Shown: positions 8,529 to 45,036, counted from the stretch's first letter. The stretch: 64,000 nt of DNA from Candidatus Omnitrophota bacterium (GCA_028716245.1 JAQUQW010000002.1:229346-293345); one strand, 5' to 3'. Translations and numbers: made by a program. The notes: generated by a model not told the origin, from the sequence alone.

Positions 8529-9460
8529 ACGGAGGAACTGATATGAGTATTATAGTGTTGGGCACAGTGGCATTAGACAGCGTAAAAACTCCTTTTGGCA
8601 GGCGTAAAGAATTACTCGGAGGATCAGCGGCACATTTTTCCATGGCTGCCCGGCTTTTTACCAAAGTTAACCTGATCGCCATTGTGGGAAGTGATTTTCC
8701 AAAGGAACACATCGCTTTTTTAAGAAGCAAGGGGATTAATCTTAGTTCTTTGATCATGGAGGGCGGTAAAACCTTCAGGTGGGAAGGCGAATATAAAGGG
8801 GATTTAAATTCAGCCCTTACCATTAACACCGAGTTGGGCGTGCTTTCGGTATTTAAACCGCAGGTTTCTGAAGAGCAGCGTAAAATAGAAAACATATTCT
8901 TAGCCAACGTTGACCCGGATATTCAGGAGCACCTTTTGCGTAAGATGCATTCTCCGAAATTAGTCGGTTTAGACAGCATGAACTATTGGATTAATACTAA
9001 GCGCAGAGAACTGATCAAACTGCTTAAGCTTATAGATATTTACGTGGCTAATGACCAGGAGGCCAGGGATTTATCAGGAGAGAGTAATTTAATTAAGGCA
9101 GCCAAACGCCTCTCCTCTTTTGGTCCTAAAATGGTGCTGATTAAAAAAGGGGAGCATGGAGTTTTATTTTACAGCCGGTCTTTGCATGCTGCAAACGGGT
9201 TGGTTTTTTCTCTTCCGGCATATCCGGTTGAGAAGGTAATCGATCCTACGGGAGCAGGGGATACTTTTGCCGGAGGGTTCATGGGTTATCTGGCAAAGAG
9301 TGGTAAGATAAACTCTTCAGCAATAAAGAAGGCATTGGCTTACGGGACTGTGGCCGCTTCTTTTAACGTGGAAGATTTTGGTCTGTATCGGACAAGCAAA
9401 CTGGTCCCGCAAGACCTACAAAGACGTCTAGTTAAATTTAAGAGCTGTTTTTTATTTTAA
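8510..9460 (+). CDS. PfkB-family carbohydrate kinase (ribokinase-like); true start possibly ATG ~8543
   Basis: DPTGAGDTFAGGFMGYL PfkB C-terminal signature; N-terminal GG motif region. Confidence 0.7.
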   Translation: MVNSEVNGGTDMSIIVLGTVALDSVKTPFGRRKELLGGSAAHFSMAARLFTKVNLIAIVGSDFPKEHIAFLRSKGINLSSLIMEGGKTFRWEGEYKGDLNSALTINTELGVLSVFKPQVSEEQRKIENIFLANVDPDIQEHLLRKMHSPKLVGLDSMNYWINTKRRELIKLLKLIDIYVANDQEARDLSGESNLIKAAKRLSSFGPKMVLIKKGEHGVLFYSRSLHAANGLVFSLPAYPVEKVIDPTGAGDTFAGGFMGYLAKSGKINSSAIKKALAYGTVAASFNVEDFGLYRTSKLVPQDLQRRLVKFKSCFLF

Positions 9461-9464
9461 TTTT

Positions 9465-9559
9465 ACACCCCGCGCTTAGAGGAGTTGCGCGGGTGTGCCT
9501 TTGTGGGCAACACGCCGCGTTTATGAGGAATTACGCGGGTGTGGCCTTCTGGCCAAGGA
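9465..9559 (+). repeat. two tandem copies (A1 ~9465-9510, A2 ~9510-9559) of the conserved two-hairpin + AAGGAG leader module, immediately 5' of mscL
   Basis: ACACCCCGCGC-TTAGAGGAGTT-GCGCGGGTGT GCC-TTTGT-GGGC then ACACGCCGCG-TTTATGAGGAATT-ACGCGGGTGT GGCC-TTCT-GGCC AAGGAG; see findings. Confidence 0.8.
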
Positions 9560-9563
9560 GACA

Positions 9564-9875
9564 ATGATGAAAGAGATCCGCGAAGAATTTTTGAGGTTTA
9601 TCAAGTCCTACGGAGTGATCGGCGTGGCTATCGGTATTGTTATGGGCCAGGCGGTAGCCAAGGTTATTACGGTTATCGTCGAAGGCCTGGTTATGCCGGT
9701 CTTAGAAGTATTACTTCCCGGGAACAAATGGCAGGAAGCGGTTTTACATCTCTGGAGGATAAATATCAAGATTGGCTTGATTATCGCCGGGCTGATCGAT
9801 TTTTTTATTATCTCGGTGGTAGTTTTCTTTTTGGTTAAATATATATTAAAGATCGAACCTGGTCATAAACATTAA
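9564..9875 (+). CDS. mscL: large-conductance mechanosensitive channel
   Basis: MMKEIREEFLRFIKSYGVIGVAIGIVMGQA... two TM helices, ~104 aa; the ORF-track start at 9495 reads through the repeat and is rejected. Confidence 0.85.
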   Translation: MMKEIREEFLRFIKSYGVIGVAIGIVMGQAVAKVITVIVEGLVMPVLEVLLPGNKWQEAVLHLWRINIKIGLIIAGLIDFFIISVVVFFLVKYILKIEPGHKH

Positions 9876-9884
9876 CACCCCGCG

Positions 9885-9930
9885 TTTATAAGGAATTACG
9901 CGGGTGTGCCCGTGTGGGCAAGGAGGACAA
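9885..9930 (+). repeat. leader module copy B, 5' of yqeY-like gene
   Basis: ACACCCCGCG-TTTATAAGGAATT-ACGCGGGTGT GCCC-GTGT-GGGC AAGGAGG, ATG at 9933. Confidence 0.8.
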
Positions 9931-9932
9931 TT

Positions 9933-10385
9933 ATGTTGGCAGAAAAGATTTTCAACGATTATAAGGAGGCAATGAAAGCCCGCGACACTCTGAAGAGTTC
10001 GGTTTTAAGTTTTTTACGGGCAGATATGCTTAATTTGGCAACCGCCAAGAAAAAAGATAAGCTCGATGACGCCGAAATTATTACCGTAATCAAGAAACAA
10101 ATAAAGCAGCGCCAGGATTCGATTGAACAGTTTACCAAGGGCGCAAGGCCGGAAGCTGCGGAAAAAGAGAAAAAAGAATCAGAGATTCTCAAAGGTTATT
10201 TACCCGCCCAGATGCCGGTTGAGGAAATTAAACGTTTGATTGAAGAAGCGGTTGCGGCAACCGGAGCAAGCGGCGCCAAAGATATGGGCCGGCTGATGAA
10301 GGAGCTGTCTGTAAAGATCGCCGGAGGGGCTGACGGGAAACTGGTCAGTGATTTGGTAAGGCAAAGGTTAAGTCCTCCTTCCTAA
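9933..10385 (+). CDS. GatB/YqeY-domain protein
   Basis: ~150 aa; MLAEKIFNDYKEAMKARD... typical YqeY family N-terminus. Confidence 0.8.
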   Translation: MLAEKIFNDYKEAMKARDTLKSSVLSFLRADMLNLATAKKKDKLDDAEIITVIKKQIKQRQDSIEQFTKGARPEAAEKEKKESEILKGYLPAQMPVEEIKRLIEEAVAATGASGAKDMGRLMKELSVKIAGGADGKLVSDLVRQRLSPPS

Positions 10386-10400
10386 AAAGAAAGTTCAAAT

Positions 10401-11594
10401 ATGTTTTCTTCGTTACAGGTTAAATATTTTCGCATCTATTGGCTGGGCATGTTTGTGTCTTTGATCGGTACCTGGATACAAACCGTAGCTCAGAGCTGGC
10501 TGGTGTTTGAGTTAACCAACTCCGCGTTTCTTTTAGGGGTGGTTGGTTTCTTAAGTTCAATACCTATATTTGTGCTTTCTTTATTTGGAGGCGTGTTGGC
10601 TGACAGGGTAAATAAAAGAAATATACTGATTTTTACCCAAGTAACTTTTATGTTCCTGGCTTTTTTACTGGCAATCCTGACCCAATTCAAACTGATCACC
10701 CCTTTACAGATTATGTTCATTGCTTTGTTTAACGGGATCGTGATGGCTTTTGACGCTCCGGCCCGGCAGTCGATAGTGGTGGAGCTGGTCGGTAAAAAAC
10801 ATCTTTTTAACGCCATCGCCTTAAACTCGGTAGCTTTCAATTCTTCGCGGATTATCGGGCCGGCAATCGCCGGTGTATTGGTTTCGGTGATCGGGATGAG
10901 CGGGTGTTTTTATTTAAACGGAGTCAGCTTCCTGGCAGTCATTATCGCCCTCTTTTACATTAGATTGGGAACAGGCAAAGCGCGGAATAATAATTCAGCG
11001 ATAAAAGATCTTAAAGAAGGTTTGATCTTTATCAGCCGCCACCCGCTTATTTTAGCTTTAGTGAGCATGGTGGGGGCGATGAGCCTTTTTGGTATTTCCT
11101 ATGTTATCCTGATGCCGGTTTTTGTCAACCATGTGCTGGCCGCCGGAGTAAAGGGCTTGGGTATACTGATGTCCAGCACCGGACTTGGGGCCTTGATTGG
11201 AGCTTTAATTCTGGCCCGGTTGGGAGATTTTAAATATAAGGGAAGGCTGCTAATCGGCTCGGCGTTCTTATTTTCCTTGTCGCTGATCATTTTTTCATTA
11301 TCTAAAAATTACGCTTTGGCCGTTTTCTCTTTGATCCTTATAGGATGCACAAGCGTTATTCCAATTGCCCTGATCAATACTTTATTGCAAATTAACGTGC
11401 CGGATGAATTTCGCGGCAGGGTAATGAGCCTTTTTATGATTACTTTCGCCGGGATTATGCCTTTTGGAAATTTGATTTCCGGAGGCCTGGCGCAAACATT
11501 GGGGGTATCGGCGGCTCTTTTTTTCTGCGGCCTGACTTGTCTGGCATTATTTACGTTGATTAACTTTGTATTTTCAGGATTAAGAGATTTATAG
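10401..11594 (+). CDS. MFS transporter
   Basis: 397 aa, ~12 TM segments, MFS loop motif GVLADRVNKR. Confidence 0.75.
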   Translation: MFSSLQVKYFRIYWLGMFVSLIGTWIQTVAQSWLVFELTNSAFLLGVVGFLSSIPIFVLSLFGGVLADRVNKRNILIFTQVTFMFLAFLLAILTQFKLITPLQIMFIALFNGIVMAFDAPARQSIVVELVGKKHLFNAIALNSVAFNSSRIIGPAIAGVLVSVIGMSGCFYLNGVSFLAVIIALFYIRLGTGKARNNNSAIKDLKEGLIFISRHPLILALVSMVGAMSLFGISYVILMPVFVNHVLAAGVKGLGILMSSTGLGALIGALILARLGDFKYKGRLLIGSAFLFSLSLIIFSLSKNYALAVFSLILIGCTSVIPIALINTLLQINVPDEFRGRVMSLFMITFAGIMPFGNLISGGLAQTLGVSAALFFCGLTCLALFTLINFVFSGLRDL

Positions 11595-11617
11595 TAGTTT
11601 TGCGCCTTAAAATAAAG

Positions 11618-11670
11618 GGACCGTTTCTATTTTTTCTTTGTTCCTATTTTTAAAAAATAAAAACGGTTCC
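11618..11670 (+). terminator. long AU-rich hairpin after MFS gene (terminator-like)
   Basis: GGGACCGTTTCTATTTTTT ... AAAAAATAAAAACGGTTCC, ~19 bp stem with 2 mismatches. Confidence 0.4.
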
Positions 11671-11732
11671 TGGTTTCACTCAAATTTCAGTTGATTTATT
11701 TATATATTTTGTTAAAATTAGTGTTGGTAACA

Positions 11733-11780
11733 ACCCGCGCTTAAAGGTATTGCGCGGGTGTGCCCTTGTGGGCAAGGAGG
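11733..11780 (+). repeat. leader module copy C (orphan: ~80 nt upstream of next start codon)
   Basis: CAACCCGCGC-TTAAAGGTATT-GCGCGGGTGT GCCC-TTGT-GGGC AAGGAGG. Confidence 0.8.
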
Positions 11781-11859
11781 TGAATTAAATTCCCGCAATT
11801 TGATAATAATAAAACGTCATAATAACAAATTTTAATAAATTATAGAGAGGAGAGTAAGT

Positions 11860-12309
11860 ATGAAGAGGTTATTAAGTTTAGGGGTAGTGGTTTTGATGTT
11901 GGCGGGATTATCCGGTTGCGGTAAGAAACAAGAAGCAGAGGAGTTGCAGCCCATTACCATGGAGTCCCTGAGTACGCCCAGCAGCCCGGCCGCGGCTATG
12001 CCGGACATAAAGGCCCAAGAGTCCAAAATTTTAACTGCTCCGGCAGTTACCCAAGCCAAAGAAGTTGTACCTGTACCGCCGCAGGGGCCTTATAAGCCTA
12101 CGGGCATCGAAATCCAGACTGCTTTAAAGAACGCCGGTTTCTACACCGGCAATATCGACGGAAAAATCGGCCCGAAGAGCAAGAAGGCGATCGAAGATTT
12201 TCAAACCGCAAATGGCCTCAAAGCTGATGGCAAGGTGGGCACCAAGACCTGGGAAGCCCTGAGTAAGCATCTGAGCGCTGAAGCCGCTCCGGTTAAGCAT
12301 AAGCGGTAA
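11860..12309 (+). CDS. peptidoglycan-binding (PG_binding_1) lipoprotein
   Basis: Signal peptide with lipobox LAGLSGC; C-terminal LKNAGFYTGNIDGKIGPKSKKAIEDFQTANGLKADGKVGTKTWEAL matches PG-binding domain. Confidence 0.7.
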   Translation: MKRLLSLGVVVLMLAGLSGCGKKQEAEELQPITMESLSTPSSPAAAMPDIKAQESKILTAPAVTQAKEVVPVPPQGPYKPTGIEIQTALKNAGFYTGNIDGKIGPKSKKAIEDFQTANGLKADGKVGTKTWEALSKHLSAEAAPVKHKR

Positions 12310-12395
12310 CGGAAATTTTTAAATTTGTTTCAAAAGAAGATCCCAATGTAAAATATTGGGATTTTCTTTTTTACAGTGGTATAATGTAAACCTAT

Positions 12396-13613
12396 ATGAA
12401 GAAATTTCCGCAAAATTTCCTTTGGGGCGCCGCAACTTCAGCGCATCAGGTTGAAGGCCAAAACATTCATAATGATTGGTGGCTGGCTGAGCAGAGCCTC
12501 TGCTTAAAAGAAGCTTCGGGCAGCGCCTGCCGGCATTATGAACTTTACGCGCAGGATTTCGACATCGCCAGAGAGCTTAACCATAATTGCCATCGTTTTT
12601 CCATAGAGTGGAGCCGCATTGAGCCGCAGGAAGGAAAATTTGACTCCTCGGAAATCGAACATTACCGTAAAGTTATTTCCGAATTAAAGAGCCGGGGAAT
12701 TGAACCGGTGGTTACCCTGCATCATTTTACCAACCCGATCTGGTTTAGCCAAAAAGGCGGCTGGACCAAAGCTGGCCTCCAGAAATATTTTTTGCGTTTT
12801 GTCGATAAAATAGTCAAAGAGTTTGCCGGCCAGGTAAAATTTTGGATAACCATAAATGAACCTCTGATTTATTCATCGCATTCCTATCTATTGGGTGTCT
12901 GGCCTCCCAAGGAGTGTTCGCTGTTTAAGGCTGCCAAAGTAACCTTTAATATGGCCGGCGCCCATATAAAAGCTTACCGTCTTATCCATAAAATTTACCG
13001 GGAAAAGTCTTTAGCCAGGCCCATGGTGAGTATCGCGGCTAATTTGCAGGCATTTGAGATTTGCCAGCCGACATTAAAAAATAAATTGGCCCTGTATTTA
13101 CGGCATAAATTATATAACTTGTATTTCATCGAGAAGCTTTTACGTAAAAAGGCCTTAGATTTTATCGGGATAAATTATTACGGCAGGAACCTGGCGGATG
13201 TGCGTAACTGGAAAATAAGGAGTTTATTGCTGGATACCTGCAGTTATAACCATCATCCTTTGCGTAAAAATTCTTTAGGTTGGGATATTTACCCGCAGGG
13301 GCTCTACAAGCTTTTAATGGCCCTGAAGAGGTATAATCTTCCAATTATGATTACCGAAAACGGCATCTGTACTGAAGATGATGATTTGAGATGGGACTAT
13401 ATCCGGGAGCATCTGGAGCAGATACATCAGGCTATTGATCAGGGGGCCAAGGTTTTAGGTTATATTTACTGGTCACTGATCGACAATTTTGAATGGGATA
13501 AAGGGTTTAGCCCGCGTTTTGGCTTGGTAGCTGTGGATTATCAAAATCAAAAACGCACAATTAAGACAAGCGCCAGAAAACTTGCGCAGGTGGCCCAAAG
13601 CAATGAAATTTAA
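12396..13613 (+). CDS. glycoside hydrolase family 1 (beta-glucosidase-like)
   Basis: FLWGAATSAHQVEG N-terminal signature, TINEP acid/base, ITENG nucleophile; 405 aa. Confidence 0.85.
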   Translation: MKKFPQNFLWGAATSAHQVEGQNIHNDWWLAEQSLCLKEASGSACRHYELYAQDFDIARELNHNCHRFSIEWSRIEPQEGKFDSSEIEHYRKVISELKSRGIEPVVTLHHFTNPIWFSQKGGWTKAGLQKYFLRFVDKIVKEFAGQVKFWITINEPLIYSSHSYLLGVWPPKECSLFKAAKVTFNMAGAHIKAYRLIHKIYREKSLARPMVSIAANLQAFEICQPTLKNKLALYLRHKLYNLYFIEKLLRKKALDFIGINYYGRNLADVRNWKIRSLLLDTCSYNHHPLRKNSLGWDIYPQGLYKLLMALKRYNLPIMITENGICTEDDDLRWDYIREHLEQIHQAIDQGAKVLGYIYWSLIDNFEWDKGFSPRFGLVAVDYQNQKRTIKTSARKLAQVAQSNEI

Positions 13614-15617
13614 ATGGAACCCAAAGACAAAGAATTTATCATAAAAGAATTGCCGTTTTTTGCCGGCCTGAGCAAGGCGGAACTGGCGATAATTTACGCC
13701 AAGAGCCGGATTGTTGAATACCGCAAAGGCCAGATTATTTATGAAGAGGGTTCGGCTCCGAGCGCTTTTTATTGCATTATCTGCGGCCGGGTGCAGATTT
13801 ATGCCAAAGATAAAGACGGGAAACAATCGATCTTGGAGTATTTGCACCGCGGTAAATATTTCGGCATTATTTCCCTGCTGACCAACGAAACGCATTCGGT
13901 GACCAGTGCTGCCATCAATGATTGCTCGATATTGGTAATCAATAAAGACGATTTTAATTCTGTGTTAGAGGGTATTCCGCGCCTGGCTATTGACCTAAGC
14001 CGCACATTAAGCCGCCGCCTTAAGCGCAAAGATATCCATCAGAAAAAAATCTTTGAGAGCACGGTTATTTCGGTTTTTAGTTCCTACGCGCAGGCAGGCA
14101 AAACTATCTACGCTTTAAATCTTGGTTTAAGCCTTAACCGTGAAACCCATAAGTCTGTAATCATTTTAGACATTTTATCTAAAGAAAAGATCCACACTTT
14201 ACCGGACAAGCTGGAAATCCAGCAGCCGCCTATTTTTGACCTATCTTCCAGCGAAGAAATTTATACCCTGCCAAAAGATTTTGTTTTAAAAAGCAGCTTT
14301 GGCATCGACTTGTTTTGTTTCTACTACCAGGAAGATAATGAAGCCTGCCTTAAGCGGTTGATTGAGATATTAAGTATTTTGGTTAATGATTATCATTATA
14401 TTCTTTTAGACCTGCCTGCGGCGATGGACCGTTCGATTATCAGTATGCTGAACCAATCGGACTTAATCCACATCTTAAGCAGCCCGGACCCGGTGGATTT
14501 AAAGCGTACCAATAATCTCATCAGCCGGCTTAAGACAGATTTTAATTTTGATCCGCAGAAGATCAAGACCATTGTTAATGAATATAAATTAGCCCGGATC
14601 CATTATAGCGATCAGCTGGAAATCCTGGGGCAGGATATTTTTGCTACCATTCCTAAAATAGAATTTGATTCCCCGGCCCGCCTGATTATCGATGAGCCTG
14701 ATTGTGAATATTCCAAGGCAGTCAGGCGGATTGCCCGCCATTTGGGAGATTGTCTTGTGGGCTTGGTCCTGGGGGTAGGGGTGGGGTATGGTTTTTGCCA
14801 TGTAGGAGTATTAAAGGTCCTTGAAGAAGAGAAGATCCCAATTGATGTGATTGCCGGTTCCAGTATCGGCGCCCTTATCGCCAGCCTTTGGGCCATCGGA
14901 AACAATAGCCGGGAGATCCTGGAGATTACCCGTGAGTTCAGAGAGCCCAAACATATCTGGGGATTAGTCGATATAACTTTTCCGCGGCTGGGCTTTCTCA
15001 AAGGCAATAAATTATACCGTTTCCTGAAGAAACATCTGGGGGATAAAACTTTTTATGATGTGAAACTCCCTTTAAAAGTAATCGCCAGCGATGTTCACCG
15101 GAAGGAGCCCAAAATTTTAGACAAAGGGCCGCTGGTTGATGCTATAATGGCAAGTTGTTCGATGCCCGGGGTATTTACCCCTTTTAAATTCAGGGAAGAA
15201 ATACTTTTTGACGGCGGAGTGACCTATCCTTTGCCTACCGAGCCGCTGATGCAGATGGGGGTAAAAAAGATTATTGCGGTAAACGTTACTCCGTCGCGGG
15301 AGGATATTTTAAAACAGCTAAAAAAGCTAAAGGAAGAGGTTGCCTCCGGTAATGCCGTTGAAAATAAGCGGCCGGGTTTTCTTGCCCGGCTCAAGCGCTT
15401 CTTTAGCCTGAATATCGTGGATATTATTTTTAGCAGTGTTGAGGTGTTGCAGTCTGAGGTAGCCCGGCGCGAAGGGGAGCTGGCGGATATCGTTTTGCAT
15501 CCGGATACCGCGGGTTTATTCTGGCTGGAATTGCATCGAGCCGATGAATTCGCCAAACGCGGAGAGGAAGAGGCGCGTAAGCATTTGAATGAAATCCGGC
15601 AATTGATCAATGAATAA
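13614..15617 (+). CDS. cyclic-nucleotide-binding domain + patatin-like phospholipase (NTE-like)
   Basis: N-term CAP_ED-like domain (FYCIICGRVQIY...GKYFGIISLL); C-term LVLGVGVGYGFCHVGVLKVLEE Gly-rich loop, GSSIG serine hydrolase motif, FDGGV Asp motif. Confidence 0.8.
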   Translation: MEPKDKEFIIKELPFFAGLSKAELAIIYAKSRIVEYRKGQIIYEEGSAPSAFYCIICGRVQIYAKDKDGKQSILEYLHRGKYFGIISLLTNETHSVTSAAINDCSILVINKDDFNSVLEGIPRLAIDLSRTLSRRLKRKDIHQKKIFESTVISVFSSYAQAGKTIYALNLGLSLNRETHKSVIILDILSKEKIHTLPDKLEIQQPPIFDLSSSEEIYTLPKDFVLKSSFGIDLFCFYYQEDNEACLKRLIEILSILVNDYHYILLDLPAAMDRSIISMLNQSDLIHILSSPDPVDLKRTNNLISRLKTDFNFDPQKIKTIVNEYKLARIHYSDQLEILGQDIFATIPKIEFDSPARLIIDEPDCEYSKAVRRIARHLGDCLVGLVLGVGVGYGFCHVGVLKVLEEEKIPIDVIAGSSIGALIASLWAIGNNSREILEITREFREPKHIWGLVDITFPRLGFLKGNKLYRFLKKHLGDKTFYDVKLPLKVIASDVHRKEPKILDKGPLVDAIMASCSMPGVFTPFKFREEILFDGGVTYPLPTEPLMQMGVKKIIAVNVTPSREDILKQLKKLKEEVASGNAVENKRPGFLARLKRFFSLNIVDIIFSSVEVLQSEVARREGELADIVLHPDTAGLFWLELHRADEFAKRGEEEARKHLNEIRQLINE

Positions 15618-15631
15618 TTGGGGGAGGAACA

Positions 15632-16123
15632 ATGAAAAGTAATGCGCGATTTATTTTAGCTATTTCAGGCTGCCTGTTATCCACTGTTTTGTTAGGGTGC
15701 GCGACGATCAAAGAAATGGGCAAAGGCTTTGCCGGCGTATCTACCCAGGTTCTCGAGGATAAACGCAAGGATGCTTTGAAAAAATCTTTTGCCCTGGACT
15801 ACAATGGCTGCTACGCCAAGGTCAAGGATATCTTAAGCCAGAAAGATAGAGCGTCCTATATATACGCAGAGGATCCCAAGAAGAAGATGATTGCTATTTA
15901 TGTTTCTGCGCAAGATACTACTCCTGTAGGGATATTTTTTACCGAGGAAACAGGAACCGGCACTTTGATTGAAATATCCAGCCCGAGCACTTATGCTAAC
16001 GAGGAAATCGCAAGCAGAATATTTACCGGTATTGATACGTTACTTAATCCTAAGCCCAAGCCTAATACGCAAAACCAAATGGAGAAGAAAGCCGATGTTA
16101 AAGAAAAAGTTATCAATCAATGA
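15632..16123 (+). CDS. hypothetical lipoprotein
   Basis: Signal peptide with lipobox LLGCAT; no recognisable domain. Confidence 0.55.
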   Translation: MKSNARFILAISGCLLSTVLLGCATIKEMGKGFAGVSTQVLEDKRKDALKKSFALDYNGCYAKVKDILSQKDRASYIYAEDPKKKMIAIYVSAQDTTPVGIFFTEETGTGTLIEISSPSTYANEEIASRIFTGIDTLLNPKPKPNTQNQMEKKADVKEKVINQ

Positions 16124-16403
16124 TTTGATTAAGGAGTGCCACCGCGTTGCTAAAAGCAAGGGTTGGTGGGATGATCTGCGTAATGACGGTGAGTTGATTG
16201 CGCTGATGCATTCTGAACTATCCGAGGCTCTAGAGGCAATGCGCGGCCATGATAAAGAAAATAATTTGGCGGAGGAGTTAGCGGACTGCTGTATCCGCAT
16301 ATTTGATTATTGCGGCTCGCGGAAAATAGATTTGGAAAAAGCGTTATTAAAGAAGATCGAATATAATAAAACCCGTCCTTACCGGCACGGAAAGAAATTC
16401 TAA
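16095..16403 (+). CDS. small MazG-like nucleotide pyrophosphohydrolase
   Basis: ~102 aa all-alpha; EELADCCIRIFDYC...KIEYNKTRPYRHGKKF resembles MazG-like NTP-PPase; track ORF 15969 is an N-extension, ATG 16095 with GGAG SD preferred. Confidence 0.55.
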   Translation: MLKKKLSINDLIKECHRVAKSKGWWDDLRNDGELIALMHSELSEALEAMRGHDKENNLAEELADCCIRIFDYCGSRKIDLEKALLKKIEYNKTRPYRHGKKF

Positions 16404-16406
16404 GCA

Positions 16407-16460
16407 ACACCCCGCGCTTATAAGGAATTGCGCGGGTGTGCCCTTGTGGGCAAGGAGGAA
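16407..16460 (+). repeat. leader module copy D
   Basis: ACACCCCGCGC-TTATAAGGAATT-GCGCGGGTGT GCCC-TTGT-GGGC AAGGAGG aacaATG. Confidence 0.8.
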
Positions 16461-16462
16461 CA

Positions 16463-16696
16463 ATGCCATACGATAGCAGTTTGGACGCGCAGGTTTTTAC
16501 GCGTTTTTGGGAGAATGATTCCGGAAAAGTGGTGGTCAGTGTTTTTTCTTATAACAATGGCCCTAAAAAGATCCAGCTTGTCAGAGAGATAAAAGATAAA
16601 AACGGCGAATATGCTTTTGCCAAACTCGGCCGCTTGACCAAAGAAGAGGCGCAAGGCATATTACCTTTGATTCAGGAAGCGCTTAAAAATATGTAA
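16463..16696 (+). CDS. small hypothetical protein (78 aa), possibly PC4/YdbC-like
   Basis: ATG directly after repeat SD; KIQLVREIKDKNGEYAFAKLGRL weakly resembles PC4-like ssDNA-binding fold (uncertain). Confidence 0.45.
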   Translation: MPYDSSLDAQVFTRFWENDSGKVVVSVFSYNNGPKKIQLVREIKDKNGEYAFAKLGRLTKEEAQGILPLIQEALKNM

Positions 16697-16701
16697 GGAT
16701 T

Positions 16702-18255
16702 ATGGCCCAAATTAAGAAGCGGGACAGTTGGGGATCGCGCCTGGGAATTATTATGGCCGTGGCTGGTTCAGCTATCGGCCTGGGTAATTTCTTGCGTTTT
16801 CCGGCTAAAGCGGCGGCAAATGGCGGCGGAGCTTTTATGATCCCCTATTTTATTTCCCTGCTTCTTTTAGGAATCCCGCTGATGTGGATTGAATGGACCC
16901 TGGGCCGTTACGGCGGGGGTTTTGAACACGGCACTGCCCCTGGAATATTCCACAGCCTTTGGCAGAAAAACCGTTTTATTAAATATTTTGGAGTGATCGG
17001 AATATTCGGCCCGCTGGTTATTTTTATCTACTATGTCTTTATTGAATCCTGGACGCTGGCTTACAGTTTTTTTGCTTTAGCCGGCAAATACACCGCGTTG
17101 ACGGATCAGCAGTCACTGCGCCATTTTTTAACCGGTTTTCAGGGTTTGGAGAAAAATCAGTATTTTAACGGCATCGGAACCGCCTACCTGTTTTTCTTAG
17201 TTACTTTCTTATTGAATATTTGGGTAATTTATTATGGGATAAAAGGGGGAATAGAGAAGCTTTGCAAATGGGCAATGCCGCTGCTATTTGTTTTTGGTTT
17301 GGTGCTGATGTCCAGAGTTTTGACATTGGGTGCCCCGGATTTAAGCCGGCCAGCTTGGAATGTGTCAGGAGGTTTTGGTTTCTTATGGAACCCGGATTTT
17401 TCCGCGCTTAAATCCGCCAAGGTTTGGCTTGAAGCAGCAGGACAAATATTTTTTACTTTAAGCGTGGGGATAGGTGTGATCCTTACCTACGCCAGTTACT
17501 TAAAGAAAGCCGATGATGTTGTGCTTTCCGGGACAACCGCGGCGATGACCAATGAATTTGCCGAGGTTATTCTAGGCGGAAGTATTATTATTCCGGCGGC
17601 TTTTGTGTTTTTTGGGCCGGTGGATATTAAATCCATCGCCCAGTCAGGGGTATTTAATCTAGGTTTTGTAACTATGCCGTTGGTTTTGAATAAGCTGCCG
17701 CTTGCCGGATTCTTCGGATTCTGCTGGTTCTTTTTATTATTTTTAGCCGGGATAACTTCTTCGATTTCGCTGGCCCAGCCGGCAGTGGCATTTCTGGAAG
17801 ATGAGTTCAATATTAACCGTAAGCGGGCGGTTTCCATATTTGCCGCAGTTTCATTCATCTTATGCCAGCCGGCGATATTTTTCCTGGGCCGGGGAGTGGT
17901 TGATGAATTGGATTTTTGGGGCGGCACATTTTTTCTGGTAGTTTTTGCGACAATTGAGACAATATTATTTGCCTGGGTATTTGGTATGGAGCGGGCTTGG
18001 GAGGAAATACATCAGGGCGCGGATATGATTATACCTAAAATCTATAAATTTATCATAAAGTATATCACGCCTTTATTTTTATTTATTATATTGGGAATGT
18101 GGTTTGCCCAGGAATGGCTGCCGATAATAATGATGAAAAATGTATCCGGGGCAGATAAGCCATTTATTTTTTGCACGCGCTTAGGTTTATTGTTCGTATT
18201 TATAATTTTGGCGGTTTTAGTAAAGATTGCCTGGAAGCGTAGAAAGCTAAAATAA
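16702..18255 (+). CDS. sodium-dependent NSS-family transporter (LeuT/MetP-like)
   Basis: GSAIGLGNFLRFP NSS signature in TM1; 517 aa, ~11-12 TM. Confidence 0.85.
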   Translation: MAQIKKRDSWGSRLGIIMAVAGSAIGLGNFLRFPAKAAANGGGAFMIPYFISLLLLGIPLMWIEWTLGRYGGGFEHGTAPGIFHSLWQKNRFIKYFGVIGIFGPLVIFIYYVFIESWTLAYSFFALAGKYTALTDQQSLRHFLTGFQGLEKNQYFNGIGTAYLFFLVTFLLNIWVIYYGIKGGIEKLCKWAMPLLFVFGLVLMSRVLTLGAPDLSRPAWNVSGGFGFLWNPDFSALKSAKVWLEAAGQIFFTLSVGIGVILTYASYLKKADDVVLSGTTAAMTNEFAEVILGGSIIIPAAFVFFGPVDIKSIAQSGVFNLGFVTMPLVLNKLPLAGFFGFCWFFLLFLAGITSSISLAQPAVAFLEDEFNINRKRAVSIFAAVSFILCQPAIFFLGRGVVDELDFWGGTFFLVVFATIETILFAWVFGMERAWEEIHQGADMIIPKIYKFIIKYITPLFLFIILGMWFAQEWLPIIMMKNVSGADKPFIFCTRLGLLFVFIILAVLVKIAWKRRKLK

Positions 18256-18270
18256 GGGAGGATAATAGAG

Positions 18271-18378
18271 GTGAAATTAGGAGGATGGATTTTTTTAATT
18301 TTTTCCTGGGGGCTGATTATTGGTTTGACAGTTTTTTGTTTTTTAAAAGTTTTTTCAAAAAACACTCCGCGCTTATAA
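18271..18378 (+). CDS. candidate 35-aa single-TM micro-protein (MetS-like NSS partner?)
   Basis: GTG start 9 nt after GGGAGG; VKLGGWIFLIFSWGLIIGLTVFCFLKVFSKNTPRL; not in ORF track (<60 aa); 3' end runs into repeat copy E. Confidence 0.3.
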   Translation: MKLGGWIFLIFSWGLIIGLTVFCFLKVFSKNTPRL

Positions 18379-18412
18379 GGTATTGCGCGGGTATGCCCTT
18401 GTGGGCAAGGAG
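18361..18412 (+). repeat. leader module copy E
   Basis: AACACTCCGCGC-TTATAAGGTATT-GCGCGGGTAT GCCC-TTGT-GGGC AAGGAG ctaagATG. Confidence 0.8.
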
Positions 18413-18417
18413 CTAAG

Positions 18418-18801
18418 ATGAAAAAGTTTTTATCGTTAGGTTTGGCATTAACTCTGCTGGTATCAATTTGCGGATGCGCGCCCCTGATTATCGGAGCAGC
18501 CGCAGGCAGCCTGGGCGCATACGCGGTAAGCAAGGATACTGTGCAGGGAGATACGGATAAGAATTATGATGCGCTTTGGAGTTCAGCTCTTAGTGTTGCC
18601 GGCTCTTATGGCATAATCCAGCAGGAAAATGCCGGTACCGGTTATATTGAATTAGGGGCACAGTCCACTAAAGTTTGGATAAAATTAGTCCGCCTGACTC
18701 AGGCGACAACCCGGCTTCGGGTTTCTGCGCGTAAATACCATTTCCCAAACATGGAGCTGGCCCAGGATATTTTTGTTAAGATTATCACGAGTGTAAGATA
18801 A
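18418..18801 (+). CDS. hypothetical lipoprotein
   Basis: Lipobox LVSICGCA; 127 aa. Confidence 0.55.
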   Translation: MKKFLSLGLALTLLVSICGCAPLIIGAAAGSLGAYAVSKDTVQGDTDKNYDALWSSALSVAGSYGIIQQENAGTGYIELGAQSTKVWIKLVRLTQATTRLRVSARKYHFPNMELAQDIFVKIITSVR

Positions 18802-30990: not shown

Positions 30991-31287
30991 CGCGGGGTGG
31001 AGCAGCCTGGTAGCTCGCAAGGCTCAATTTTGGGCTCTTCAGCCGGTAACGGTTGAAGGATAACCTGTCAAATTCGGTGAAGCCTTAATTTGCAAAGGTA
31101 ATACCGAGCCAAGTTCGCCAATATTTGTGGTGAAAAGGTGTAGAGACTAAACGGCAGGGGCCCGCCATAGGATTTTGGCGGGTCAAGATATAGTCCAGAC
31201 TACGAATCCACTATTTGTGGAGCAGCGTAAGCTGAAGTAGCAAGCATAACCTTGAGGTCGTCCGTTCAAATCGGGCCCCCGCAACCA
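30991..31287 (+). tRNA. initiator-type tRNA-Met (anticodon CAU) interrupted by a group I intron in the anticodon loop; exons ~30991-31024 and ~31245-31287 (77 nt incl. CCA)
   Basis: Exons spliced in silico give CGCGGGGTGGAGCAGCCTGGTAGCTCGCAAGGCT|CATAACCTTGAGGTCGTCCGTTCAAATCGGGCCCCCGCAACCA, near-identical to canonical bacterial tRNA-fMet (C1:A72 mismatch, A11:U24). Confidence 0.85.
31025..31244 (+). ncRNA. group I self-splicing intron (IC3-like, Azoarcus/Anabaena tRNA-intron type)
   Basis: Contains GUGUAGAGACUAAACGGCAGGGG (P7 5'/J7-3/P3) and CAAGAUAUAGUCCAGAC (P7 3') core elements and GUCAAAUUCGG...CCGAGCCAAG segments matching the Azoarcus tRNA-Ile intron; terminal G before exon 2; P1 with U.G wobble can be drawn. 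Confidence 0.8.
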
Positions 31288-31290
31288 ACT

Positions 31291-43427: not shown

Positions 43428-44129
43428 ATGGAAGAGATAGTTTTAGAAGCAGAGTTAAGAGAGGGCAAGGGAAGAGCCAACACTAAAGATTTAAGGGAAA
43501 GCGGTTATCTGCCCGCGGTAATTTATTCCCGCGCTAAGGATGCCTTATCCATAAAAATTTCCAGGGGCGCACTTTTAAAATTGGTCCATCAGTATCATTT
43601 AGAAAACACGATTATTAATCTAAAGATCAAGGATGATAAGAAGGCCAAAGGCCGCTCCTGCCTGGTCAAAGAAATTCAGTATGGCCCGGTTAGCGAAGAT
43701 ATCATCCATGTGGATTTTAATGAGATCTCCCTGACCGAGGCGATCAAAGTCAATGTGCCTGTTGAAACTAAAGGCGAACCTGTCGGCGTGAAACAGGAGG
43801 GCGGGTCTTTAGAGCACCTGCTTTGGGAAATCGAAATAGAATGTTTACCCACCAGTATCCCTAAGAATATAGAGGTAGACATTAGCGCCCTTAAGCTGGG
43901 GGAAGCAATCCATGTTAAGGATCTAGTTTTTGCAGCGGGAATTAAGCCTTTAAGCGACCCGGCGGCAATTGTTTTACATATCATCGCTCCGATGAAGGAA
44001 GAAGCGCCGGCGGAAGCAGTTGAAGGAGAAGCCAAAGAGGAGCCTGAAGTAATTAAAGAGAAGAAGGAAATTCCCGGTGAAGGCGCTCCTGCTGAAGCGG
44101 CCAAAGAAAAAGAGAAAGAGAAGAAGTGA
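43428..44129 (+). CDS. rplY: 50S ribosomal protein L25 / general stress protein Ctc
   Basis: N-terminal L25 beta-barrel; acidic/Lys-rich C-terminal tail; 233 aa. Confidence 0.85.
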   Translation: MEEIVLEAELREGKGRANTKDLRESGYLPAVIYSRAKDALSIKISRGALLKLVHQYHLENTIINLKIKDDKKAKGRSCLVKEIQYGPVSEDIIHVDFNEISLTEAIKVNVPVETKGEPVGVKQEGGSLEHLLWEIEIECLPTSIPKNIEVDISALKLGEAIHVKDLVFAAGIKPLSDPAAIVLHIIAPMKEEAPAEAVEGEAKEEPEVIKEKKEIPGEGAPAEAAKEKEKEKK

Positions 44130-44704
44130 AGATAATTGCGGGCCTGGGAAATCCCGGTTTGATCTACGCGGGCTCCCGGCACAACATAGGCTGCGCGATT
44201 TTAAAATCTTTAGCCCGTTCTTTAAAAGTTTCGCTTAAAAGAGACAATTCGGTTCTTGCTTTAATAGGCACGGCTAAATTGGGCTCGCATAATGTGATCT
44301 TGGCCCTGCCGCAGACTTTTATGAATTTAAGCGGTAAAGCCGTCAGCGCTTTGCTTAAGAAATTTAAAGGCGCTCCGTCCGATCTTTTGGTGGTTTGCGA
44401 TGATTTGGATTTGGAGTTGGGCAGGATGAAGATTCGCCCCAGCGGCTCAAGCGGCGGGCACCGGGGGTTACTTTCGATCATTGAACATTTGGGAACACAA
44501 AATTTTAGCCGCCTGCGTATCGGGATCGGCCGGCCAAAAAATTCAAACGATGCCGCGGATTATGTGCTGGCGGGTTTTTTACGCGGCCAGAAAATGCTGG
44601 TCCAGGAAGTAAAAGAGGATGCCGTCAACTGCTGCCTAAGCTGGGCGGAAAAAGGCGTAGTTGAAACCATGAATCTGTTTAACACAAAGACACCCCGCGC
44701 TTAA
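44126..44704 (+). CDS. pth: peptidyl-tRNA hydrolase
   Basis: IIAGLGNPG...RHNIG N-term, HRGLLSIIEHLG; C-terminal codons ...TPRA* lie inside repeat copy F. Confidence 0.9.
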   Translation: MKIIAGLGNPGLIYAGSRHNIGCAILKSLARSLKVSLKRDNSVLALIGTAKLGSHNVILALPQTFMNLSGKAVSALLKKFKGAPSDLLVVCDDLDLELGRMKIRPSGSSGGHRGLLSIIEHLGTQNFSRLRIGIGRPKNSNDAADYVLAGFLRGQKMLVQEVKEDAVNCCLSWAEKGVVETMNLFNTKTPRA

Positions 44705-44745
44705 AGGAATTGCGCGGGTGTTGTCTACGTAGACAAGGAGCAGAA
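44690..44745 (+). repeat. leader module copy F (second hairpin replaced by TGTCTAC/GTAGACA covarying stem)
   Basis: ACACCCCGCGC-TTAAAGGAATT-GCGCGGGTGT TGTCT-ACGT-AGACA AGGAG cagaaATG. Confidence 0.8.
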
Positions 44746-45036
44746 ATGAATAAGTATGAAGCAATGGTAATTGTTAGGCCTGACTTATCTGACGAAAATA
44801 AAAAAACGTTATTTAAGCAGATCGATGACGCGGTGGCTAAGAATAACGGCCAGATCTCCAGCTCAGGAGTTTGGGCGGAAAGGCGTAAATTTTATTTCCC
44901 GATCAATAAATTTATGGAAGGGATTTATTACCTGGTAGCGTTCAGCGCTCCGTCGGCAGCAATCAAAGAGATGCGTAATATTTATAAACTTAATGAGAAT
45001 ATCCTAAGAGTCCTGTTTACGCGTATGGATGCCTAA
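44746..45036 (+). CDS. rpsF: 30S ribosomal protein S6
   Basis: MNKYEAMVIVRPDLSDE... canonical S6 N-term; track ORF 44710 start reads through the repeat and is rejected. Confidence 0.9.
   Translation: MNKYEAMVIVRPDLSDENKKTLFKQIDDAVAKNNGQISSSGVWAERRKFYFPINKFMEGIYYLVAFSAPSAAIKEMRNIYKLNENILRVLFTRMDA

Follow-up and report, generated by a model that had tools for sequence, protein, structure and literature searches.

The junction between pth and rpsF in a 64-kb stretch of Candidatus Omnitrophota DNA (positions 1-64000, hereafter the window) was found to carry one copy of a repeat of about 50 nt. In the best reading of the data, the unit is a sense-oriented, structured repeat that is gained and lost, and that supplies a Shine-Dalgarno (SD) sequence and often the stop codon of the upstream gene. 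As to its nature, we lean towards the view that the copy at this junction (copy F) belongs to an interspersed Omnitrophota repeat family and acts as a self-propagating or copy-and-paste ribosome-binding-site (RBS) cassette, not as a gene-specific regulator. Omnitrophota are uncultured ultra-small bacteria with compact genomes, and to our knowledge nothing is known about the control of gene expression in them. No description of the unit was found in the literature searched, literal sequences included.

Copy F at the pth-rpsF junction

On the + strand of the window, the gene order is prs, ctc (L25), pth, rpsF, ssb, rpsR, rplI and dnaB. Copy F lies at 44690-44742 (+) and scored 74.4 bits against the covariance model described below. 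From pth to rpsF, the junction reads ACACCCCGCGC-TTAAAGGAATT-GCGCGGGTGT / TTGTCT-ACGT-AGACAA / GGAG-cagaa-ATG. Hairpin 1 (44690-44721, +) consists of the 5' arm ACACCCCGCGC (44690-44700), the 11-nt loop TTAAAGGAATT (44701-44711) and the 3' arm GCGCGGGTGT (44712-44721), with a single bulged C. Hairpin 2 (44721-44736, +) pairs TTGTCT (44721-44726) with AGACAA (44731-44736) across the loop ACGT (44727-44730), and its final A residues are shared with the SD sequence AAGGAG (44735-44740, +), which is followed by a spacer and the rpsF ATG (44746-44748). The open reading frame (ORF) of pth (44126-44704) ends in K-T-P-R-A, and its stop codon TAA (44702-44704, +) is located within the loop of hairpin 1. 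The sequence-only reading had described hairpin 2 of copies F and A2 as UGUCU-ACGU-AGACA and GGCC-UUCU-GGCC, respectively, and both could be read directly in the sequence, that of copy F as UUGUCU-ACGU-AGACAA. All of its statements of fact held; it was also right in placing the last residues and stop codon of pth inside hairpin 1, and the N-T-P-R-L end and stop codon of a micro-ORF (18271-18378) inside copy E.

The same junction was empty in a close relative (L121, STD1_64), whose Pth is 88% identical and whose flanks are near-identical. In L121, the junction reads ...TTTAAC-ACAAGGAGTAGAAATGAATAAG, with an 8-nt overlap of pth and rpsF; the junction in the window is longer by exactly 49 nt. In the alignment, the missing 49-nt segment (ACAAAGACACC...CGTAG) corresponded to 44684-44732 (+), with a boundary made ambiguous by the repeated ACAA.

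It had further been proposed that the element is constrained at the protein-coding level as well as the RNA level, and this part was not borne out by the comparison of Pth C-termini with relatives such as L121, which are without the element. Across 120 homologous clusters, the conserved Pth core ended at ...TMNxFN and the tails beyond it differed. The last four residues were SRNE (TRSRNE-type) in 31 of the 120 clusters and TPRA in 18, and further tails were of the TSLPAGR type or were read-through tails in proteins of 207-210 aa. Likewise, the micro-ORF encodes a conserved small membrane protein with the core ...TVFCFxKVFSK, but the NTPRL tail was found in the window only, and the relatives end in KSR, SKKEMK or SIRS. 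Since the tails of both proteins vary, the shared T-P-R represents the element's own nucleotides in translation and not a protein constraint. As a separate observation, the tails of some Pth entries of 207-210 aa resemble read-through of inserted repeats, for example P0007 (...KTPRPSQRDGV...).

Structure and covariation of the two hairpins

A covariance model (R1) was built from 48 seed copies, and 140 copies were obtained at E <0.01 in the window and 99 loci. The loci were gathered by a pattern anchored on hairpin 1; thus the variation of hairpin 1 is under-sampled. Hairpin 1 is composed of a CAC/GUG foot, a bulged C on the 5' strand, a GC-rich covarying upper stem of 6-7 bp and a loop of 11-12 nt (YUUAnnGG(A/U)AUU), in which GGA occurred in 87 and GGU in 43 of 130 copies. 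The purine at position -1 is conserved and is able to pair with the U after GGUG. Hairpin 2 has a stem of 4-7 bp of nearly any sequence, a U-A closing pair and the loop NN(G/C)U, and AAGGAG directly follows it on the 3' side in most copies.

In the 140-copy alignment, standard pairs accounted for 98.3% of cells, compared with 83.3% after shuffling. Pairs changed on both sides numbered 14 of 15 (8.6 in the shuffles), and 245 double-change cells were observed, compared with 42. None of the 500 shuffles equalled any observed covariation value, and sliding the partner by 1-3 columns lowered pairing to 31-57%. Double changes were detected at all six pairs of hairpin 2, with 2-5 pair types per pair, and at eight of the nine pairs of hairpin 1, whose upper-stem variants included CGGCGC/GCGCCG, CAACGC/GCGUUG, CGGCC/GGCCG and UGGCGC/GCGCCA. 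Both hairpins were recovered by RNAalifold unprompted, with compensatory changes at 13 of its 14 pairs. On the sense strand, G-U and U-G pairs (38) exceeded A-C and C-A combinations (13), indicating that the sense strand is the folding strand. These results demonstrated that compensatory change on the sense strand maintains the two hairpins, and the statistical weight of the covariation rests on many single variants.

Among 130 copies located by means of hairpin 1 only, 84% showed a hairpin of 5 bp or more that started within 5 nt of the end of the hairpin 1 match, compared with 19% in shuffles and 19% at 30 nt downstream. These 130 copies contained 61 distinct hairpin 2 stems. The sequence-only reading had taken the difference between hairpin 2 of copies F and A2 as compensatory covariation and as direct evidence for selection on RNA structure. 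The selected structure was upheld by the larger alignment, in which supported pairs were found that no shuffle matched. The contrast shown by copy F, by comparison, is a subfamily difference: GCCC-UUGU-GGGC and UUGUCU-NNGU-AGACAA are two widespread hairpin 2 subfamilies, so the difference between copy F and the other window copies does not represent one local compensatory event. Selection on structure was thus supported and chance was excluded. The explanation by independent chance palindromes with no selected structure has only the small size of hairpin 2 in its favor; the hairpin frequency, the shuffles and the slid pairing given above leave it next to no probability.

Other copies in the window and distribution of the unit

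Seven copies were detected in the window, all on the + strand, starting at 9465, 9510, 9876, 11730, 16408, 18363 and 44690, which corresponds to a density of about one per 9 kb. The same seven were obtained by repeat finding, by pattern search and by the covariance model with filters off, which yielded exactly these copies at 38-81 bits. A 32-nt pattern with at most three mismatches gave three matches in the window, compared with zero expected. The window contains 50 ORFs of at least 150 aa on the + strand and three on the - strand; therefore, the uniform orientation of its copies says little by itself. This strand bias of the window (1-64000) is extreme, and the + strand carries 50 of the 53 ORFs of at least 150 aa and five of the five Rfam-called tRNA genes.

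Copy A1 (9465-9509, +) is composed of hairpin 1 (9465-9496) and hairpin 2 (TGCCT-TTGT-GGGCA, 9496-9509, one U-G pair); it is without an SD and is directly followed in tandem by copy A2 (9510-9566, +). In the latter, hairpin 1 (9510-9542) has a U-A pair replacing C-G, hairpin 2 is TGGCC-TTCT-GGCCA (9542-9555, core GGCC-TTCT-GGCC), and AAGGAG (9555-9560) precedes the mscL ATG at 9564. Copy B (9876-9935, +; hairpin 2 TGCCC-GTGT-GGGCA) is located directly 3' of the mscL stop codon (9873-9875) and carries AAGGAGG (9920-9926) in front of the yqeY ATG at 9933. Copy C (11730-11780, +) lies in a 5' UTR, 12 nt past a promoter-like TTGATT-16-TAAAAT, and keeps AAGGAGG(TGA) with the actual start codon 80 nt further downstream. 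This copy is present in the window and in L122 and decayed in L125; since it retains AAGGAGGTGA with the real start so far away, the SD is part of the unit. Copy D (16408-16465, +) lies between the stop of a MazG-like gene (16403) and the ATG (16463) of a 77-aa protein. Copy E (18363-18420, +) carries AAGGAG (18407-18412) in front of a lipoprotein ATG at 18418, and its loop holds the TAA (18376-18378) that ends the micro-ORF. This conserved hydrophobic ORF of 35 aa (18271-18378, +) lies downstream of an SNF transporter gene and takes its last five codons and stop from copy E.

Mechanical ORF calls at 9495-9875, 9906-10385, 16436-16696 and 44710-45036 run upstream through the unit and extend mscL, yqeY, the 77-aa gene and rpsF, with N-termini such as MPLWATRRVYEELRGCGLL..., MPVWARRT... 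and MRGCCLRRQGAE....

To describe the distribution, a pattern of hairpin 1 only was searched in a collection of one genome per species, and at least 120 stretches matched. Among the matches listed, nearly all were Candidatus Omnitrophota metagenome-assembled genomes (MAGs), together with the complete genome of Ca. Velamenicoccus archaeovorus. A few listed matches bear other taxon labels, such as L074, which is a possible but unproven case of mislabelling. The structured repeat is thus almost restricted to Omnitrophota in the sample examined. The hairpin 1 pattern gave no match in 2.9 million viral contigs, and a phage origin or use was rejected on this basis. Membership in any Rfam 15 family was likewise rejected: at gathering thresholds, the whole window gave tRNAs and a group I intron only, and an E-value scan of 9400-10000, which holds three copies, gave only chance snoRNA matches (E >3). 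The group I intron (RF00028, 76 bits, 31015-31220) splits the anticodon loop of an initiator-type tRNA gene at 30993-31289 (+; CGCGGGG...CTCAT / AACC...CCCCGCAACCA, anticodon CAT), for which ARAGORN made no call.

Gain, loss and arrays of the unit

A syntenic 10-kb block from PfkB to DUF3568 was compared among relatives, with identities given for MFS against the window. The block holds six copies in the window, two in L122 (95%), none in L123 (87%) or L124 (85%), and decayed remnants at sites B, C and E in L125 (83%). Empty sites were observed at A, B, D and E in L123, at D and E in L122 and at D in L125. At the pth-rpsF junction, a neighbor-joining tree of the Pth cores of the 120 clusters implied at least ten changes between filled and empty states. 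These results showed that the unit is gained, lost and decayed among close relatives, with clean filled and empty sites. The term leader module, used in the sequence-only reading, is only partly apt, because an element whose copies come and go between close relatives does not constitute a fixed leader of the genes concerned.

The unit at site D is flanked by TAA(G/T)C and AGGAGG, without any duplication, and at sites B and F the insertion took the place of the upstream gene's final codons. No consistent target-site duplication was found in the filled and empty pairs at pth-rpsF, D and B. The only repeats there were ACAA at F and GCAA at D, both within the hairpin 2/SD consensus, and a target-site duplication of AAGG or of the SD was rejected as not consistent across sites. 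The left flank is variable, with A or G at position -1 and AAGG, AAGA or NTAA as the preceding 4-mer. Tandem units were present in the window (A1-A2), L052 and L013. Nested arrays, in which a complete unit sits inside the hairpin 1 loop of another, often with hairpin 2 UUCGCC-NGGU-GGCGAA, reached up to three levels and gave multi-branch folds (L066, L008, L010, L055, L079 and L053). In the nested cases read, the host loop was split between GG and A(A)UU.

The gene mscL occurs in the window, L123 and L125, whereas in L122 and L124 it is missing from the interval between PfkB and YqeY. Copies A1/A2 and B flank mscL (9564-9875) in the window, and a single unit in L122 combines the left-hand flank of A1 with the right-hand flank of B. 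The loss in L122 could be a deletion by recombination between copies; L124 is without both mscL and the unit.

Position of the unit relative to genes

An SD, a start codon and an ORF directly follow 90 of the 140 copies, and the start is ATG in 86. Most copies without a direct SD and start belong to tandem or nested arrays. In 73 of 130 copies, a gap of 0-1 nt separates the end of hairpin 2 from the SD motif. On the upstream side, the stop codon of a same-strand ORF lies 0-9 nt before CACC in 40 of 109 copies and in or just past the hairpin 1 loop in 21; the stop is thus supplied in two ways, as a TAA just before CACC or as the loop TAA. About 4-6 of the 140 copies are antisense to their neighbors, and one adjoins an apparent tRNA gene. 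In L015 and L037, copies of opposite orientation inside one 8-kb locus each face genes on their own strand, indicating that orientation follows transcription and not replication. Promoter-like boxes occur at variable distances upstream of copies that start operons.

The downstream genes, identified from their N-termini, are functionally unrelated and encode ribosomal proteins, chaperones, lipoproteins, biosynthetic enzymes and a tRNA. They include tuf, dnaK, rpsF, rpsP, rplL, rplF, an S11-like gene, ssb, clpC, glnB, aroC, ilvC and lipoprotein genes, and many are highly expressed. The predicted accessibility of the SD was 0.51 for genes behind a unit and 0.44 for other SD-bearing genes of the same loci (p=0.055), and that of the AUG was 0.58 and 0.47, respectively (p=0.009). 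This predicted gain is in the expected direction but small and weak.

Four copies (L065 687-741, L057 4355-4409, L116 5527-5581 and L056 1008-1062) have a start codon 2-15 nt past hairpin 2 and no recognizable SD, as in GGGCAA-ATG of a purD-like gene, which indicates that the SD is not obligatory. In L085 (3181-3235, -), a unit with hairpin 2 CGCGAT-ACGT-ATCGCG adjoins the 5' end of an apparent tRNA gene, and in L002 (2749-2804) and L095 (1471-1526) the unit is followed by an apparent convergent tRNA 3' end.

Discussion

In the explanation that we favor, the unit would spread by some copy mechanism as an RBS cassette. Folding of the two hairpins would draw the stop codon towards the SD, which would stay unpaired beside a stable clamp; being compact in this folded form, the unit would be tolerated, or mildly useful, in tight operon junctions. 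The invariant foot, bulge and loop of hairpin 1 may be the handle by which some factor binds or copies the unit. Against this explanation, no gene for mobilisation was found, terminal inverted repeats were absent apart from the hairpin arms, no target-site duplication was consistent across sites, and the predicted gain in accessibility is small. Also against it stand the near-identity of hairpin 1 throughout the phylum, the conserved loop and bulge and the frequent position before highly expressed genes, features that would also fit a selected RNA function. A more specific form of mobility, possible but doubtful in our judgment, is a non-autonomous mobile element that homes to the RBS, integrates at or over GGAG and swaps the junction for a stop-hairpin-hairpin-SD cassette. 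Hairpin 1 would then serve as the handle recognized either by a copying machinery, possibly one acting on RNA, or by a global translation factor domesticated in Omnitrophota. The recurrent filling of pth-rpsF and the insertion into the SD-like AAGG^AAUU of the unit's own loop would be expressions of target specificity.

A cis-regulatory leader, in which a CsrA-like global RNA-binding protein reads the hairpin 1 loop (AAGGA) and the SD about 27 nt downstream and so sets the translation of a regulon, appears rather unlikely. The conserved loop and bulge, the placement of one GG(A) in a hairpin loop and the second in the SD, the strict sense orientation, the abutment of the unit on the SD and the translation or chaperone functions of many downstream genes would all suit such a leader. 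However, close relatives differ in whether a given housekeeping junction is filled, there are nested and tandem copies, some copies are antisense to their neighbors, and one is beside an apparent tRNA gene. The loop GGU in 43 of 130 copies also weakens a CsrA-like site, and a CsrA-binding leader in the strict sense was rejected because the invariant loop GGA is not kept. By tblastn, neither CsrA nor Hfq was found in 0.98 Mb, a sample too small to count. We also consider it unlikely that the unit is an intercistronic processing or stability module, cut by an endoribonuclease in or between the hairpins, after which hairpin 1 would protect the 3' end of the upstream mRNA and hairpin 2, next to the SD, the 5' end of the downstream mRNA. 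The intercistronic position and the two stable hairpins without a U tract, in genomes that have canonical U-tract terminators elsewhere, are consistent with such processing, as is the copy in L085 that abuts an apparent tRNA 5' end; however, stems of 10-11 bp are short for RNase III, and the gain, loss and decay at the same junctions are at odds with a required processing site.

The unit might instead act at the DNA level, as a REP or IS200/IS605-type element whose single-stranded hairpins are read by an HUH (Y1) transposase or a DNA-binding protein, with the RNA fold incidental. Seamless insertion and absence with no evident target duplication, an imperfect stem with an extrahelical base, a strand-specific wobble bias and nested and tandem copies would agree with this proposal. 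We nevertheless judge it improbable. Units take the orientation of the neighboring gene even where opposite genes are within a few kb of each other; the conserved flank GGAG is on the 3' side of the folding strand, in contrast to the 5' position of IS608-type targets; the two hairpins differ from each other; and neither a REP-like GTAG motif nor inverted REP pairs are present.

Several narrower candidates were rejected. The unit is not an intrinsic terminator: a U tract is missing, with GUGU after hairpin 1 and AAGGAG after hairpin 2, and no terminator-like call was made for any of the six copies in 9300-18600. Real U-tract terminators occur upstream of some copies. For a promoter inside the unit, the TATAAG-like loop was not conserved in the 11-nt loop variants, and real -35/-10 boxes lie upstream at variable distance. 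Pairing between the hairpin 1 loop (AAGG) and hairpin 2 (CCUU) appeared in the minimum free energy structure of copy E only and, by inspection, is impossible in F and B. Templating of hairpin 2 from the target was dismissed, as empty sites are without the 3' arm and share only ACAA at F and CA at D. A MITE did not fit either, with no fixed-length duplication in filled and empty pairs and no inverted repeats other than the hairpin arms. For a riboswitch or ligand aptamer, such as the tandem hairpins of guanidine-II, the downstream genes are unrelated and the hairpin 2 loops are NN(G/C)U, not ACGR.

Among known elements, the unit appears closest in its mode of working to MIRUs, being intercistronic, oriented and overlapping with stop and start signals. 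MIRUs are reportedly intercistronic, in one orientation, with ends that overlap stop and start signals and a copy number that varies between strains, as Supply et al. are said to have described in 1997. Both are short intercistronic repeats with a single orientation to transcription and an overlap with the flanking stop and start; here, 61 of 109 upstream ORFs stop at most 9 nt before or inside the unit, and an SD and start then follow in 90 of 140 copies. In contrast, MIRUs are tandem units of 46-101 bp that are read as small ORFs, and two covarying hairpins are not their defining feature, whereas the present unit is a structured module of two hairpins that brings an SD and nests in its own loop. 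Because the sequences are unrelated, the likeness is one of shared working and not of homology.

In kind, the unit is closest to REP, ERIC and Correia elements, which are co-transcribed structured repeats. REP/BIME and RAYT-mobilised REPIN elements are likewise abundant, GC-rich, imperfect extragenic palindromes that are co-transcribed and lineage-variable, with structure conserved over sequence. However, REPs are found mainly 3' of genes, either in both orientations or paired as inverted copies, with a GTAG-type motif, whereas the present unit is sense-only, lies 5' of start codons, bears an SD and has two unlike hairpins. No GTAG-type motif and no inverted doublets were found in the 140 copies, all arrays being direct or nested. 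IS200/IS605-derived PATE have similar subterminal hairpins at both ends, a fixed target of 4-5 nt on the 5' side of the left end and seamless insertion. In the present unit, insertion was seamless, the hairpins at the two ends were not similar, the left flank was variable, and the conserved flank was on the 3' side. ERIC/IRU and Correia (NEMIS) elements are also small non-autonomous repeats of transcribed intergenic regions that fold in mRNA, and they can change the expression or stability of neighboring cistrons. They differ in their size (100-160 bp), long terminal inverted repeats and occurrence in both orientations, with a TA duplication in Correia, whereas the present unit is 50 nt long, without terminal repeat or duplication, and fixed in position beside the SD. 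Two-site CsrA leaders resemble the unit in that a loop presents one GG(A) and the SD, at a distance of about 27 nt, another, but the unit has GGU in a third of its copies and is gained and lost at housekeeping genes. Engineered insulators of the RiboJ type also place a stable hairpin directly 5' of the SD and thereby keep the RBS context constant; the likeness is functional only, as the unit has no ribozyme core and no Rfam match. Size, two unlike hairpins, a built-in SD, a fixed place by the start codon and nesting in its own loop set the unit apart from all of these.

The unit rewrites operon junctions: it separates formerly overlapping genes, alters C-terminal tails and supplies a stop codon and an SD; it also represents a ready-made natural RBS insulator. 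Its effect on the junctions bears on gene calling, in the form of artificial N-terminal extensions and odd C-termini in protein databases, and public Omnitrophota annotations may carry false N-terminal extensions through the unit. It also bears on strain-level comparison of MAGs and on any translation model for Omnitrophota. If RBS targeting or a phylum-wide binding factor proved true, the unit would constitute a new kind of RNA element, mobile or regulatory.

Other repeats at the same sites

The position immediately 5' of the SD seems to receive structured repeats in general. At pth-rpsF, an insertion of another type was observed in other Omnitrophota, with Pth tails of TSLPAGRQG... in P0010, P0023, P0036, P0052, P0089, P0117 and others. 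A similar palindrome, GCCTGCC...GGCAGGC, adjoins units in L048 and L053 (L053 2150-2180) and may be another hairpin family with the same CACC...GGTG foot. At about 16560-16650 in L124, orthologous to the site of copy E, a different repeat takes up the same position before the SD; it is duplicated in tandem, and its period is about 41 nt (GGCCACTAGGCCGTGGTTTGGCTCCAATAGCCAAAGCCAC...).
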